A DNA stretch of 64,000 nt. Origin: a virus. Made by a program: the position numbers and the translations under genes. The stretch lies in IMG/VR virus record IMGVR_UViG_3300025684_000011. One strand, given 5' to 3'. Position 1 is the first letter of the stretch; each line of letters opens with the position of its first letter. Shown piece by piece: positions 37,415-53,037 of the stretch. A model generated the notes under the pieces. That model was given only the letters and a program-made list of their open reading frames with translations. It was not told the origin of the DNA and did no database searches.

Positions 37415-37912
37415 ATGAGTTTAACTGACTTTATCGACAGCAGTATAAGTCGATTCGCAAAATATTATTCTTGGTTTGCATTACTAATGGTATTGTTCGT
37501 TGTGATCAATGTCTTGGGAAGATATTTCTTTGACATTCGTAATGATTATGCAGTTGATTCAACATGGCAATTATACGGTATGCTTATTATGTTTGGTTGC
37601 AGTTATTCATTAGGAAAAGAAGCACATATTAGAACAGATCTGTTCTGGAACAATTATAAAGATCGTACAAAAGCAATTATTGACTTTGTAAGTTATCTCT
37701 TACTATTCTTTCCTTCATTTGCACTTATCACATACATCAGTTTCAATGATACATCAGCCGCTATTGAGATGAACGAACGTAGTTCTGAAACAATGGCTCA
37801 GCTTGTCATCTGGCCTATGAAGATTGGTATTACACTTGGCTTGGTACTTTTGATGGTACAAGCATTGAGTCAAATGATTAAATGTTATAGAAGGATTTTT
37901 ATCAATGAGTAA
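37415..37912 (+). CDS. dctQ: TRAP transporter small permease
   Basis: 4 TM; NVLGRYFF, HIRTD. Confidence 0.92.
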   Translation: MSLTDFIDSSISRFAKYYSWFALLMVLFVVINVLGRYFFDIRNDYAVDSTWQLYGMLIMFGCSYSLGKEAHIRTDLFWNNYKDRTKAIIDFVSYLLLFFPSFALITYISFNDTSAAIEMNERSSETMAQLVIWPMKIGITLGLVLLMVQALSQMIKCYRRIFINE

Positions 37913-39299
37913 TGAATGGCTAGCAATGACAATGTTATTTACAATGATTGCCGGCATATTTGTTGGAGTTCCAGTTAGTTTTACACTAACATTCTTAGCA
38001 TTAATTTTTGGATTAATTGGATTAGGACTAAGTGTTTTTGATCTTACATATCTTAACCTATTAGGAGGTCTTTCAGACGAAGTACTAATGAGTATTCCTA
38101 TGTTTATTCTGATGGGTTACATTGCTGAACGAGCTGGATTGGTAGAAAATTTATTTGAAAGTTTAAAAAAGGTATTTTCAGGCGTTCCTGGTAACCTATA
38201 CATTGTTGTTATCTGTATTGCAGTATTAATTAGTTTAGCAACAGGAGTAGTTGGAGCGTCAGTAACATTACTAGGCATTATGGCCGCTCCAAGCATGATT
38301 AAACAAGGATATGATGCTAAACTATCAGCAGGAGTAATAGCAGGAGGCGGGTCTCTTATTATGATTCCTCCATCTATTCCCCTTATTGTAATGGCGCCTA
38401 CTATGAATCTTAATATCATTGACGTATATGCGGCCGCAATGGGACCAGGACTAGCGATTGCATTTATGTATCTAGTATACGTTATATACCTTATAAAAAC
38501 AAAGCCAGAGGTAGCACCTATGATGCCTGTGGAAGAAAGAGTAGAAATAGATTACAAGTTAATTCTGTTAACATTATGGCATATTGTGCCATTAGCGTCA
38601 TTAATTCTTATTACACTAGGATCAATGTTATTTGGACTAGCAACTAGTACAGAAGCTGGTGCATTTGGTGCATTTGGTGCTTTATGTTTAGCCGCTATTA
38701 ACAGAAAATTAACTTTAACAAATATTCAAGAAGCATTACTAAAAACTACTAACACGTCAGCAGTAGTAATGTTATTAGCAATTACGTCAACTATATTTGG
38801 TGCCGTATTTGCTTCCTTGGGTGGTGACAAAGTCATTGTATCGGTACTAACTTCGATGCCTATACCCGGATGGGCAATAGTTGGAGCGATATTAGTGTTA
38901 TGTCATATTTTAGGCTGGCCCTTTGAGTGGCCAGTGGTAGTGCTAGTGTTCTTACCAATTTTCTTACCAGTATTAATTGATACTGGTGTTGACTTAATTT
39001 GGTTTGCGGCCGCTTTGGGTGTTATTTTACAAACAGCATATTTAACACCTCCTGTAGCCTTAACCGGATACTACCTAAAACAGGTGGTGCCTTCGTGGGA
39101 TCTTAAATTAATATTCAAAGCAATGATGCCCTTTATGTATATTCAGGTTATTTGTGTTGTAATATTGTTTATTACACCTGGCCTTGCAACATGGTTACCT
39201 AATTACCTAGCAGAGCAAAGAAAAAATATAGTACAAGAAGTACTAGATGATGATGTCAAAGGACAGGAAGTCGACTTCCTAGGTGTCCTTGGACAATAA
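37905..39299 (+). CDS. dctM: TRAP transporter large permease
   Basis: IPMFILMG, MIPPSI, TSTEAGA, LTPPV. Confidence 0.95.
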   Translation: MSNEWLAMTMLFTMIAGIFVGVPVSFTLTFLALIFGLIGLGLSVFDLTYLNLLGGLSDEVLMSIPMFILMGYIAERAGLVENLFESLKKVFSGVPGNLYIVVICIAVLISLATGVVGASVTLLGIMAAPSMIKQGYDAKLSAGVIAGGGSLIMIPPSIPLIVMAPTMNLNIIDVYAAAMGPGLAIAFMYLVYVIYLIKTKPEVAPMMPVEERVEIDYKLILLTLWHIVPLASLILITLGSMLFGLATSTEAGAFGAFGALCLAAINRKLTLTNIQEALLKTTNTSAVVMLLAITSTIFGAVFASLGGDKVIVSVLTSMPIPGWAIVGAILVLCHILGWPFEWPVVVLVFLPIFLPVLIDTGVDLIWFAAALGVILQTAYLTPPVALTGYYLKQVVPSWDLKLIFKAMMPFMYIQVICVVILFITPGLATWLPNYLAEQRKNIVQEVLDDDVKGQEVDFLGVLGQ

Positions 39300-39318
39300 T
39301 ATTTTGGAGAATAAAAAT

Positions 39319-40413
39319 ATGAAACGTTTCATCGGAGCGGTATTAGCTACCGCAATGTCATTTGGCGTAGTGGCTTCAGTAGCAACTGCAAATGCCAAAG
39401 AACTACAGATTGCATCTAGTTTTGGAGCAATCTCAACTTTTAACGAGCAAGCAAACTTTCTTGCCGAAAGAGTTAAAGTATTAACTGACGGAAAAATTGA
39501 TATGAAAATCAGACCTTCCGGCGCATTAGTTCCTTCTTTTAAGGTTCTAGATGCTACGGCGTCAGGTGCAGTAGATGGTGCATGGACTCAGTCTTATTAC
39601 TGGGTAGGAAAGTCAAAGACTCTTGCATTGTTTAATAGTCCGTTAGGAGGACCTTACGGTATGGACGGGATTGATTTCCTAGGTTGGATGTTCCACGGTG
39701 GTGGACTTGAATTGTATAACGATTTTTATCAGAATGAGTTAAAAATGGATGTACAGGCACTTCCAGCAATGCCTACTCAGAATCAGCCATTGGGTTGGTT
39801 CCATCGCCCAATTAAAGATCTAGCAGATCTCAAAAACTTTAAATGTCGTCAAACTGGCGCCAACGTAGAACTTTATGCTCGTATGGGTATGCAGACTATT
39901 GGTATGCCAGGTGGTGAGATTATGGCCGCGGCCCAAAAGGGTGTTATTAATTGTGCTGAATTCGTTGGTGGTTTAGAAGACGAACGTCTTGGATTTCCTA
40001 CAGTATGGAAATACTACTACTTGAATTCATTGCATGAGCATTCAAATACTGGTGATCTATTGATTAACGGTAAAGTGTGGCGTTCAATGACTAAGCAACA
40101 GCAGACCGCTGTTCGTTCTGCCGCTTATGAGTCATATCTATGGTGGTTAACTGATATTCAAGCAAAGAATGGTGAGGCACTTGCTAGAATGATCAAAGAG
40201 CATGGCGTTAGAGTTATGAAGACTCCAGCAGATATTTTGGTTGCTGAGTTAGAAACTATTGACGAAATGTTAGCAGAAAATGCCGCAAAGGATCCTTATT
40301 TTGCAAAAGTACTTGCTTCTCAGAAAGCATGGGCAAAGAAAGTAGTTCCATTTAAGAACGTAGCATTTACGCCTTATAACTATGCCGCAGATTACTACTG
40401 GAAGAAAAAGTAG
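39319..40413 (+). CDS. dctP: TRAP substrate-binding protein (TakP-like)
   Basis: Signal peptide; GALVPSF.VLDA..SG.VD, YYW.GK, GWF..PI..LADLK..K.R. Confidence 0.93.
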   Translation: MKRFIGAVLATAMSFGVVASVATANAKELQIASSFGAISTFNEQANFLAERVKVLTDGKIDMKIRPSGALVPSFKVLDATASGAVDGAWTQSYYWVGKSKTLALFNSPLGGPYGMDGIDFLGWMFHGGGLELYNDFYQNELKMDVQALPAMPTQNQPLGWFHRPIKDLADLKNFKCRQTGANVELYARMGMQTIGMPGGEIMAAAQKGVINCAEFVGGLEDERLGFPTVWKYYYLNSLHEHSNTGDLLINGKVWRSMTKQQQTAVRSAAYESYLWWLTDIQAKNGEALARMIKEHGVRVMKTPADILVAELETIDEMLAENAAKDPYFAKVLASQKAWAKKVVPFKNVAFTPYNYAADYYWKKK

Positions 40414-40433
40414 TTTTAAAAGCATATAACGTT

Positions 40434-40465
40434 AAAAATAGGGTGCTTATGCATCCTATTTTTTT
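40434..40465 (+). terminator. rho-independent terminator
   Basis: AAAAATAGGGTGC-TTAT-GCATCCTATTTTTTT. Confidence 0.85.
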
Positions 40466-40494
40466 GGCTATAACTTCTATATTTGTTATAAATG

Positions 40495-40502
40495 TATAAA
40501 TA
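40495..40502 (+). promoter_or_regulatory. T4-type late promoter
   Basis: Exact TATAAATA upstream of the second dctP. Confidence 0.6.
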
Positions 40503-40604
40503 CACTTGGATAGATACGGTTTAATACCTTATCGGAAAAAGCCAGTTTTCTATCTCAATGTTACTTGAAGTAATATTGTTTTCTTAAGAAAAAAGGAGTC
40601 AATT

Positions 40605-41543
40605 ATGACACAGAAAATTAGATGGGTTCTAGCACATGAGCCAATTGAATTATTTCTAAGAGCGGCAAAAGTTTTCGCATCAGAAGTTAATGCAAAAGCA
40701 GAAGGCGCACTAGATATTGAAGTTATGACAATGAGTGAGTATTCTGCAAAGTATAATAACGGTGTTGTTGTTACTAAGCACGAACTTGTTGATATGATTA
40801 ACAGAGGCGACATTGAAATGTCCCAAACATACACAGTAGACATTGGCGAATATGATCACGAATTCCGTGCATTAGATATGCCATTCCTATTTGAGTCACA
40901 CGACCACGCAACTAAGGTGTTCGAAGGCCCAATCGGTCAGTCACTACTAGACGGATTAACAGAATCAGCTGGTGTTAAAGGTTTAGCCTTTACATACTCC
41001 GGTGGATATAGAATTATTCCTGGACAAGAAGGAATTGATACTATTGAAGATATTAGAGGTCTAAAACTTCGTACTTCATTCTCACCTGTTGCTATTGAGA
41101 CTTTCAAAGCAGTTGGTGCAGACGTAGTTCCTATGGAACTTGAAGAAATGACAGACGCAATCCAAGACAAAGATATTCAAGTAGGTGAGTCTACTTACCC
41201 ACGTATCTATGCATTAGGACAAGACAGAGTTTCTAAGGTTATTAACCACACAGAACACTCATTGTTCTTAACAAGCATCCTAATCAACCAAGACTTCTTT
41301 GCAACTCTTGGTGAAGAACTACAAGGTATTGTTGTAGACGCCGCTAAAACAGCCGCTAATTACGAACGTGTAATCAGCATTGAAGACGTTGCACTTACAC
41401 AAGCTAAAGCTGAAAGCGATGGCATTGAAGTTCGTAGAATGTCAACAGAAGAAAAAGCTCGTTTCAAAGCCGCTACTGCTCATGTTTATGACATGTTCCC
41501 AGAGTTAGCTGGAACAGTTAAGAAGATCCAAGATACAAAATAA
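40605..41543 (+). CDS. DctP-family substrate-binding protein without signal peptide
   Basis: LDMPFLF...DHA, GGYR, EDIRGLKLRT, T.H; begins MTQKIRWVLAHEP after AAGGAG. Confidence 0.88.
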   Translation: MTQKIRWVLAHEPIELFLRAAKVFASEVNAKAEGALDIEVMTMSEYSAKYNNGVVVTKHELVDMINRGDIEMSQTYTVDIGEYDHEFRALDMPFLFESHDHATKVFEGPIGQSLLDGLTESAGVKGLAFTYSGGYRIIPGQEGIDTIEDIRGLKLRTSFSPVAIETFKAVGADVVPMELEEMTDAIQDKDIQVGESTYPRIYALGQDRVSKVINHTEHSLFLTSILINQDFFATLGEELQGIVVDAAKTAANYERVISIEDVALTQAKAESDGIEVRRMSTEEKARFKAATAHVYDMFPELAGTVKKIQDTK

Positions 41544-41690: not shown

Positions 41691-42776
41691 ATGCCGGCAA
41701 GAAATCATAGAAATTGGTTAAAGAAACCATTAGTAGAATATGTTAGTAGCGAAATATATTCAAGTCAAGAAATATTTGAAGAAGAAATCGAAAGTATTTT
41801 CTCAAAGGTGTGGGTACCAGTATGTCACATCAGTGAAATGTATAATAAATTAGATTATCGAACATCTCAGATAGCAGGCATTAATATTTTAGTTTACAAT
41901 ACCGGAGATGGCGTTAAAGCATATCGTAATTATGGCAGTTGGGCACCTACTGGAACATTGCAAGCACCTATTGTAACAGTTGAACCACAACTACACAGCG
42001 AAGTAAAGCACGGAGGTATGGTATGGGTAACACTTGATCCTAATCCTACACAGAGTGTTGAAGAGTGGACAGCAGGTGCATTTGATTGCATTGCTGATGC
42101 TATTGACACAGAAGAACTAGAAATTTTTCATTATCATAAAGCAATTATTCCTACCAACTACAAACTATGGCATGATACTAACAGTGAATTCTATCATGAC
42201 TTCATGCATTACTTTAATCGTGTAACTGGTTTCAACGATGAGTATTTTGCTAGAAAGAATATTCCCTTTGATAACGGGCATGTGAACGTTAGTAGTTTTA
42301 CTGTAAATTATACAGAGTTTGATAAAGAAGGCGATAGAGGTGAACTAAGTTTTCCTAACTTACCTCCAAACCAATGGTATATGGTAGACTTGTTTCCTGG
42401 CTTTAACTTTAATTTACGTGGTAGTGCATATCGTTCAGATAGTGTTACGCCACTTGGACCAAATAGTGTACTAATAGAGTTTAGAGGATACGGTTTAAAG
42501 AAAGATACTCCAGAAGAAAGACAAACTCGTATTAAACATCATAATACTATCTGGGGACCGTTTGGCAGAAACTTACATGAAGATCTTTTAGGTGTAACCG
42601 GGCAAGGAGCATCAATGTCTCCAGGCACAGAGAAAAGAAATATTTTACATGGAAGACATGAAAATAGTACTATACATGATGAAGTTGGTATGCGTCACTA
42701 CTATGCAGAATGGGGAAAATATATGGAGTTAGATCCTAGTAATCCAATAAAAGAGGTTGACAAAAAGGCCGCATAG
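41691..42776 (+). CDS. ring-hydroxylating oxygenase alpha-like protein lacking the Rieske [2Fe-2S] motif
   Basis: IY...IFEEE...IF..VW..VCH.SE; NYKLWHDTNSEFYHDFMH; ED; no CxH...CxxH. Confidence 0.85.
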   Translation: MPARNHRNWLKKPLVEYVSSEIYSSQEIFEEEIESIFSKVWVPVCHISEMYNKLDYRTSQIAGINILVYNTGDGVKAYRNYGSWAPTGTLQAPIVTVEPQLHSEVKHGGMVWVTLDPNPTQSVEEWTAGAFDCIADAIDTEELEIFHYHKAIIPTNYKLWHDTNSEFYHDFMHYFNRVTGFNDEYFARKNIPFDNGHVNVSSFTVNYTEFDKEGDRGELSFPNLPPNQWYMVDLFPGFNFNLRGSAYRSDSVTPLGPNSVLIEFRGYGLKKDTPEERQTRIKHHNTIWGPFGRNLHEDLLGVTGQGASMSPGTEKRNILHGRHENSTIHDEVGMRHYYAEWGKYMELDPSNPIKEVDKKAA

Positions 42777-42787
42777 TGTTATAAATA
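42757..42787 (+). promoter_or_regulatory. tmRNA promoter (overlapping sigma70 and late elements)
   Basis: TTGACA-N17-TATAAATA. Confidence 0.7.
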
Positions 42788-42794
42788 TAATACA

Positions 42795-43222
42795 ATGGTG
42801 AAGCATAACAAACGTTGTACAGGACTCGGGGGCAGTACCCGACGCCTCCACCATAAACACACGAACGAGGAATGGAACTATAAACAGTTTTAAAGATAAG
42901 TGTAGAATATTTTATATCGTTAAAGGTCATCTTAACGTATCTACACAAACAATAGAAGATTGTTACGATTATTATTTTAGAAGAATGTGGAATAATAACG
43001 AGTGTTACATATACGAAGAAGGTTTTGAAGAATCGTATCGTGTTTTTATGATGGGGGCGAAATAGGATCGACTGGCAAGTAGTAGGAATGTGGAGTTGTC
43101 CGGATGTAAGCTCGGTTAACGCGAACAAAACGATAATTGCAAACGATAATTTTGCATCTGAGGATTTTGCCCTAGCGGCTTAGTTACTCTGGGCGGGTAC
43201 TGCCTGGAAACAGAAGTGCCAC
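42795..43222 (+). ncRNA. ssrA: two-piece (circularly permuted) tmRNA, alphaproteobacterial type
   Basis: Acceptor piece ends TCGGG-GGCAGTA-CCCGA-CGCCTCC-ACCA (42853); coding piece starts GGGGGCGAAATAGGATCGAC (43053), giving G3.U70; tag ANDNFASEDFALAA* at 43139-43183; outer ends approximate. Confidence 0.93.
42880..43065 (+). CDS. putative 61-aa protein in the tmRNA intervening segment (ATA start)
   Basis: Stop-free frame 42802-43065; GAGGA 8 nt before ATA; non-canonical start. Confidence 0.45.
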   Translation: MNSFKDKCRIFYIVKGHLNVSTQTIEDCYDYYFRRMWNNNECYIYEEGFEESYRVFMMGAK

Positions 43223-43237
43223 TTAAAGTGAATAACA

Positions 43238-52961: not shown

Positions 52962-53037
<76 letters not shown>

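Follow-up and report, generated by a model that had tools for sequence, protein, structure and literature searches.

Positions 42791-43223 of the window, by which we mean the whole 64,000-nt stretch of virus DNA analysed here (IMG/VR record IMGVR_UViG_3300025684_000011), encode an alpha-type permuted (two-piece) tmRNA. The Rfam model RF04321 matches with 105.9 bits at 42791-43183 (threshold 47; model positions 1-213), and RF01849 matches with 101.3 bits at 42753-43223 (threshold 50; model positions 1-355). Along the strand the encoded CCA comes first, followed by the 5' GGGGGCG and then by the tag frame (Table 1), which is the permuted order. ARAGORN does not call a tmRNA in the window, although the Rfam models score above threshold. 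Apart from the tmRNA models, one tRNA is the only Rfam match above threshold in the window, and no intron family is found. The intervening segment (IVS) is inserted between the CCA and the 5' G, outside the T-loop, and is predicted to be cut out during maturation. The seven-pair acceptor stem carries G3.U, the alanine identity feature. In the alignment of nested loci, 7 of 7 acceptor-stem pairs form in 13 of 13 related loci, the third pair is U-G in all 13, and two pairs show compensatory changes. When the locus is compared with cultured phages by blastn, the sole match is to a Rhodobacter phage and covers part of the tmRNA.

The DNA of the window comes from a marine phage that is large and T4-like. 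Its genes include those for a T4-type large terminase, a RecA/UvsX-like protein, helicases and a class I ribonucleotide reductase. Among cultured phages, the PA5oct-like jumbo phages have the closest terminases (49% identity). The predicted tmRNA promoter overlaps the stop of the upstream gene. The same TTGACA-17-TATAAA arrangement recurs upstream of the tmRNA of locus L141; upstream of the tmRNA in L177, only an extended -10-like TGgTATAAT can be read. A consensus promoter scan passes over TTGACA-17-TATAAA on account of the final A in its -10 hexamer, and finds no terminator. Directly upstream of the promoter, a 361-aa protein (41691-42776), syntenic in L124 and L125, has a weak match to PF00848 (ring-hydroxylating oxygenase alpha subunit, 28.5 bits). 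It is preceded by a TRAP transporter set (37415-41543) made of a 165-aa ORF, a DctM-like large permease (37905-39299) and two DctP-like solute-binding proteins (39283-40413 and 40605-41543), which are unusual auxiliary metabolic genes for a phage. The phage also encodes a tRNA-Thr (anticodon TGT) at 52962-53037.

Table 1. Features of the tmRNA locus and its spacer (window positions, all on the + strand).
Feature	Position	Details	Basis
Predicted sigma-70-like promoter of the tmRNA gene	42757-42785	TTGACA 42757-42762, 17-nt spacer, TGt-TATAAA 42780-42785	read from sequence
tmRNA acceptor piece	42791-42853	3' half of tRNA-like domain and T arm; encoded CCA 42851-42853	RF04321 and RF01849 alignments, nhmmer acceptor-piece model
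Intervening segment (IVS)	42854-43052	199 nt, 29% G+C	removal predicted from homology to characterised two-piece tmRNAs
Predicted closing stem, 5' strand	42854-42864	UAAACACACGA, pairs with 43038-43048	minimum-free-energy fold, covariation, duplex energies
Shine-Dalgarno-like GAGGA	42867-42871	8 nt before ATA 42880	sequence; conserved in L124, L127, L137, L138, L215, L218
Out-of-frame minigene	42872-42883	ATG-GAA-CTA-TAA, stop overlapping ATA as AUAA	sequence; not conserved
Predicted nested gene	42880-43065	61 codons and TAG, probable AUA start	homologues, dN/dS, codon-position pattern, AlphaFold2, protein properties
Predicted closing stem, 3' strand	43038-43048	UCGUGUUUUUA, also encodes tail part Y-R-V-F-M	fold, alignment, covariation
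tmRNA coding piece	43053-43223	5' acceptor strand GGGGGCG with G3.U; nested gene's TAG 43063-43065; tag frame	Rfam alignments
Tag reading frame	43139-43183	GCA...GCT and TAG, product ANDNFASEDFALAA	alignment to alpha_tmRNA consensus

The spacer and its closing stem

One forward frame of the spacer has no stop between ATA 42880 and a TAG that lies inside the conserved tmRNA 5' end, GGGGGCGAAAUAG. A forward frame is equally open in 0.34% of composition-matched shuffles. The preliminary description of this DNA had already placed a 199-nt spacer between the CCA (42853) and the mature 5' G (43053), a single stop-free frame ending within the tmRNA 5' end, GAGGA 8 nt before an ATA, and an out-of-frame ATG-GAA-CTA-TAA minigene across that ATA, and all four observations stand. 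Its premise that intervening loops are short does not: among distinct spacers of alpha-type tmRNAs in viral contigs the median length is 86 nt, and 45 of 104 have at least 100 nt.

The first 11 bases of the spacer pair with a strand at its far end, just before a 4-nt leader (UGAU) and the 5' G. Across 13 nested loci, 97.4% of the cells of the closing and acceptor stems are paired, compared with 37-66% in slid-register controls. Eight pairs are altered on both sides in these loci, a covariation that none of 500 shuffles equals. Pairing of this kind extends to spacers with unrelated interiors: for 78 of them the median duplex energy is -15.0 kcal/mol for a spacer's own ends and -8.2 kcal/mol for mismatched ends (p = 1.6e-34). 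The alignments thus show covariation of the two spacer ends as a closing stem, which is predicted to stack on the acceptor stem. The minimum-free-energy fold extends the closing stem by a stacked 4-bp helix (42865-42868/43033-43036), which includes the first two bases of GAGGA. Against shuffles, the spacer folds with a z-score of -2.6 and the whole precursor with one of -4.3. In spacers with other cargo (L036, L019, L032 and L078), AAGGAG lies within the stem.

The nested gene shares its last nine codons (tail Y-R-V-F-M-M-G-A-K) with the 3' strand of the stem, the leader and the mature tmRNA 5' end. Free-standing homologues, described below, have variable tails after the motif EEGFEE-Y, and the tail in the window is therefore probably a by-product of reading out through the RNA.

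The sequence itself recurs in independent data. Spacers identical to that of the window are found in four other IMG/VR loci and near-identical ones in three ENA assemblies, and 14 DNA runs each contain at least 82% of its sampled words. (The locus in the nearest record, G001, is identical to the window and hence uninformative.) We reject an assembly error or indel near 42872-42882, which the preliminary description proposed to check: independent assemblies repeat the sequence, and relatives hold the same frame relation. An indel is also not needed to account for the missing ATG, because relatives keep ATA or ATT at the aligned start position. We also reject a 130-codon antisense ORF (42736-43128, - strand) that spans the tmRNA and the spacer. 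Its frame is interrupted by stops in L124, L127 and L216, and it is probably a by-product of the codon use of the sense gene.

The nested gene, its family and other spacer cargo

Scanning viral contigs for the conserved tmRNA 5' end gave a sample of 120 loci. In two of these, L004 and L069, the spacer codes for a peptide that is clearly homologous to that of the window and starts at ATG. A profile search finds 63 family clusters at 90% identity, and an exhaustive HMMER search finds 126 family representatives at 50% identity. Members have in common the motifs VKGH, W-N-x-E and EEGFEE-Y. The interior of the protein is conserved down to 40% identity, where synonymous sites are saturated. The predicted product has a mass of about 7.6 kDa and a pI of 5.7, and AlphaFold2 models it as three helices (pLDDT 85). 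From its homologues and codon-level conservation, we take the nested frame to be a genuine conserved protein gene. The preliminary description had inferred a gene nested in the pre-tmRNA, and that proposal is supported by the homologues and by dN/dS values of 0.1-0.3, to which we return below.

The family is widespread and common in marine viromes, and it forms clusters without a Pfam, PHROG or fold match. Pfam gives no match below E 0.005, and the weaker ones occur in only 1-2 of 37 members; with PHROGs, 3 of 37 members have weak matches, all unnamed. Searched with the predicted structure, Foldseek against PDB and BFVD gives a best E above 5, VIA-align (wide) gives Z of at most 3.5, and the ESM Atlas (shape, features) gives TM of at most 0.55 over short stretches only, with no credible relative. 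The Pfam, PHROGs and structure libraries thus hold no credible match, yet a distant relationship is possible. In cultured phages, tblastn with the peptide finds no match. A query with the 241-aa protein encoded downstream retrieves only near-identical loci.

The same gene occurs in several positions relative to tmRNA genes. We collected extra loci from viral and metagenome contigs and classified them with nhmmer models of both tmRNA pieces. The gene is nested in the tmRNA spacer in 26 of 173 loci, lies directly upstream of the acceptor piece in 15, has a tmRNA 1.3 kb upstream in 2, and has no tmRNA within the fetched flanks in the other 130; the set consists of the loci that match the window best, and its proportions are accordingly biased. 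Two free-standing members illustrate the last class: one adjoins an SNase gene (L128) and the other lies in a radical-SAM cluster (L131), and Rfam finds no tmRNA at either locus.

In the family tree, a single clade (SH-aLRT 98) unites 15 of the 16 distinct nested sequences. The clade also takes in L263, whose gene abuts the acceptor piece, as well as L152 and L168. L004 falls elsewhere on the tree. Given this placement, the gene has moved between positions in and around the tmRNA gene. On the tree, entries into and exits from the spacer amount to four changes, at least three of them forced by well-supported branches; the tree is built from 61 columns with many forks open, and the count is uncertain. 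Within the nested clade (98), the ten distinct sequences that lack an ATG, including the window, form a monophyletic subclade (SH-aLRT 88).

The VKGH/EEGFEE protein is one of several kinds of cargo. Spacers in the 120 loci from viral contigs are 3-499 nt long. Among 45 distinct spacers of at least 100 nt, 33 have an ATG ORF on the forward strand that takes up at least 55% of their length, compared with 13 on the reverse strand, and 34 of the 45 beat 95% of their shuffles. At least three recurrent ORF families occupy the slot, together with singletons of 54-120 codons, most of which have a Shine-Dalgarno sequence. Stem-forming ends flank exchangeable ORFs that bring their own Shine-Dalgarno sequences, and the spacer is a general cargo slot for small ORFs in phage tmRNAs.

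Two of the other recurrent cargo types can be described briefly. A WSICAD membrane-peptide ORF of 38-44 codons fills spacers of 159-192 nt in L032, L043, L048, L070, L113, L088, L098, L102, L110 and L019; it has an AGGAG- or GGGG-type Shine-Dalgarno sequence, and its UGA ends four bases before the tmRNA 5' G. An EYICINNYS ORF of about 35 codons (L013, L015, L058, L062, L063, L078 and L117) runs on into the 5' end of the tmRNA and terminates there at the UAG that also ends the window gene. Singleton ORFs of 65-120 codons, several with predicted membrane helices, are found in L016 (in a 499-nt spacer), L018, L044, L017, L081 and L036. The spacer of L036 encodes a basic 65-residue protein, with AAGGAG inside the closing stem. 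A contig from RNA run X16, which matches window positions 42819-42856 and has one unmatched end, joins a near-identical acceptor piece to the start of an L097-type ORF, and another cargo type may be present in RNA pools.

Start codon and selection in the subclade without ATG

The frame in the window is open from 42802, and it contains no in-frame ATG, GTG or TTG until codon 36. In the closest homologues that do have an ATG, P0006 and L069 among them, this codon aligns exactly with ATA 42880. The window thus has ATA at the aligned start despite GAGGA, and nine other distinct sequences likewise have a non-canonical codon there. The aligned start is ATA in the window and L124 and ATT in L127 and L216, with no in-frame stop just upstream in these sequences. 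It is ATA in L215, with an in-frame TGA just upstream, and ATA in L137, L218, L138, L220 and L221, with an in-frame TAA immediately 3' of the CCA. These last six sequences have no ATG, GTG or TTG before the conserved core, and with an in-frame stop just upstream, initiation there would therefore have to be non-canonical. All ten sequences of the subclade have GAGGA, AAGGA or GGAG 4-9 nt before the ATA or ATT.

Outside the subclade, nested homologues begin with ATG (L004, L069, L140, L149, L223, L224 and L225), which answers a check raised in the preliminary description, and all of them except L069 have a Shine-Dalgarno-like motif just upstream. The alignments show that ATA or ATT replaced the ancestral ATG in the window's subclade, with the Shine-Dalgarno sequence retained. 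AUA 42880 is the probable start codon of the nested gene. Two public gene calls, P0001 (L124 1501-1761) and P0003 (L127 145-402), run upstream through the tRNA-like acceptor piece, an over-extension that is an annotation artefact caused by the missing ATG.

AUA, AUC, AUU and CUG initiate in E. coli at 1-2% of the level of AUG, and infC and pcnB, both starting with AUU, are the only confirmed natural cases there; AUA is a very poor initiator in E. coli, where it is not confirmed as a natural start (bioRxiv 10.1101/063800). The gene in the window resembles infC and pcnB in that a near-cognate AUH codon would stand behind a normal Shine-Dalgarno sequence, an arrangement that in those genes keeps translation deliberately low. 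It differs in the codon: infC and pcnB have AUU, whereas in the window's subclade most members have AUA and one lineage has AUU. The window gene also shows no sign of IF3-type autoregulation.

The gene could be translated from somewhere other than AUA 42880, by reinitiation after the minigene or from a near-cognate codon further upstream such as ACG 42865. Several details fit this reading. A minigene stop overlaps the ATA in the window and in L124 (AUAA), and in L138 the minigene ATG-AGG-AAC-AAA-TAG overlaps its own ATA as AUAG. In L215 an out-of-frame five-codon minigene ends only 4 nt before the ATA. L124 moreover has an in-frame ATG five codons upstream, where the window has the ACG. However, L127/L216 and L137/L218 have no ATG at all before the core and yet are under the same selection. 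The codon at -5 has no Shine-Dalgarno sequence upstream, and it is missing from the shorter spacers of L137 and L138, which have their in-frame TAA right after the CCA. The only elements common to all ten sequences are the Shine-Dalgarno sequence and the ATA or ATT at the position of the homologues' ATG. We consider another start unlikely. A conserved role of the minigene as a coupling device is rejected, given its absence from L127/L216 and L137/L218, and the minigene is probably incidental.

Substitutions in the subclade show purifying selection on the predicted gene. NG86 dN/dS is 0.09-0.32 with dS up to about 1.3, measured over about 60 codons, nine of which are also under RNA-structure constraint. 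Between the window and L127 there are 12 synonymous changes at 29 sites and 10 non-synonymous changes at 151 sites (binomial p = 4e-5). Among the ten distinct sequences, variable sites are distributed 15/8/29 over the three codon positions. The gene frame is stop-free in all ten, and the other two forward frames have 2-12 stops. Third-position changes pile up across the interior of the gene, away from the closing stem.

These data bear on whether the cargo gene is a pseudogene in this subclade, where loss of the ATG would have silenced it and recent divergence or RNA constraint would have left the frame intact. The lack of a canonical start codon is what such silencing predicts, and the spacer RNA does fold better than shuffles and has its ends constrained by the closing stem. 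Recent divergence nevertheless sits poorly with ten distinct sequences that have reached such dS values with no stop or frameshift, and RNA constraint sits poorly with a low dN/dS and a third-position excess in the interior. The Shine-Dalgarno sequence is retained as well, and the same protein is conserved at loci without a nearby tmRNA. We find silencing improbable. A decayed insertion, which the preliminary description offered as its alternative, likewise finds no support, the frame being intact in ten distinct non-ATG sequences under purifying selection. That the spacer acts mainly as RNA, be it a structured element, a scaffold for processing or a small RNA that is released, with an incidental reading frame, is very improbable: the closing stem shows covariation and is common to spacers whose interiors are unrelated, and both spacer and precursor have favourable fold z-scores, but the stem accounts for only about 11 bases per end, the interior is conserved as protein even where synonymous sites are saturated and in free-standing genes too, and stem and gene are compatible rather than alternatives.

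Expression, proposed mechanism and relation to known systems

The reading we prefer, and consider likely, is that a small-protein gene with an AUA or AUU start sits in the loop of the hairpin-like IVS of a phage permuted tmRNA, all on one precursor. One transcript would then probably serve as both messenger and stable-RNA precursor. Contigs assembled from three RNA libraries in two studies differ from the spacer at 0-1 positions and bridge the junction of the spacer and the 5' G, with DNA carry-over as a possible source. They span 42946-43201 (X17), 42940-43090 (X16) and 43012-43119 (X18); assembled contigs show no RNA ends, and these cover the stretch in part, the uncovered parts being uninformative. 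We take them as a weak hint of expression of the spacer.

Under the preferred reading, the tmRNA promoter would give a single precursor made of the acceptor piece, the gene-bearing spacer and the coding piece. Ribosomes would join the RNA at GAGGA/AUA, most of them during transcription while the stem still lacks its 3' strand. They would then pass through the closing stem and the acceptor strand as far as UAG 43063, where translation would end. The RNA would then refold, and cuts at the CCA (42853) and at G 43053 would release the two-piece tmRNA. A ribosome on the last nine codons would block the acceptor stem, and therefore translation and maturation would exclude each other at that moment. 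The weak AUA or AUU start would keep ribosome traffic low on a strongly transcribed stable-RNA precursor. The order in which translation comes first and folding and processing follow is a model only. Coupling or competition between translation and tmRNA maturation was already suggested in the preliminary description; it becomes more concrete with a covarying closing stem and a stop codon in the acceptor-stem strand, and we infer it from this arrangement.

The fate of the spacer suggests one further step. Non-stop RNA is the substrate of tmRNA. Once excised, the spacer would break off within the codon that follows AUG 43048-43050; lacking a stop, it would be a substrate for trans-translation. 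The gene in L069 ends at a UGA inside its spacer, so a non-stop spacer is not general for the family. A more elaborate proposal is that of a dual-use pre-tmRNA. The cargo would be translated only co-transcriptionally, before the closing and acceptor stems form, and termination at the UAG would free the RNA to mature. The change from AUG to AUA or AUU would have been selected as a throttle that leaves maturation unblocked, and the released spacer would act as a non-stop mRNA, with the tmRNA from the same transcript marking the resulting product for destruction. We regard this full scheme as speculative and rather doubtful.

The closest known relatives of the host RNA are the permuted tmRNAs of Alphaproteobacteria and marine myophages (RF01849, RF04321; Caulobacter; phages Melnitz and Mosig). 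They have the same gene order as the window, a G3.U acceptor stem and an alpha-type tag ending in LAA, and those of the marine phages Melnitz and Mosig are phage-borne, as is the window's in its marine T4-like virus. They differ in that the IVS of the described permuted tmRNAs is treated as discarded, whereas the IVS of the window holds a protein gene under selection, some of whose bases also belong to the closing stem and to the mature 5' end. The Melnitz paper reports two-piece tmRNAs in marine phages and does not describe spacer ORFs (PMC9004378). The 2025 tmRNA database paper reports only a tRNA-Ala gene and a repetitive element within spacers (PMC11915505), and we find no description of protein genes in permuted-tmRNA spacers in the searchable literature.

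Other systems share single traits with the window. Group I introns with homing-endonuclease genes occur in the tmRNA T-loop (PMC11915505). Such tmRNAs resemble the window in having a protein gene in a part absent from the mature RNA. They are spliced, whereas the window has no intron or splicing, removal is predicted by ordinary tRNA-type end processing, and the cargo is not a nuclease. In tRNA-tufB operons and in phage T4 tRNA clusters with small ORFs, stable RNA and mRNA are co-transcribed and separated by RNase P or RNase E. There too one transcript yields a stable RNA and a message, as we propose for the window. The window differs in that the message lies between the two halves of one functional RNA and overlaps it, and its translation would therefore have to unwind helices needed for maturation.

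Two-piece tmRNA is a textbook example of a permuted RNA gene with a thrown-away spacer. The loci analysed here indicate that abundant marine phages use the tmRNA spacer as coding space, with a message that shares bases with the helices defining the mature RNA. New here are a widespread three-helix VKGH/EEGFEE cargo family, the occurrence of the same gene nested in, adjacent to and free from tmRNA genes, covariation evidence for a closing stem in the alpha-type marine lineage, and a long-lived putative AUA/AUU start. Gene callers miss such genes or, as with P0001 and P0003, extend them into the tRNA-like domain. The recurrent association of the family with tmRNA genes is no more than a lead: the protein might help to take over host translation. 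If one subclade has kept an AUA or AUU start for long, it would provide a rare natural example of non-canonical initiation being sustained in a bacterial system, and the locus would offer a natural system in which translation and stable-RNA maturation have to be coordinated on one molecule.
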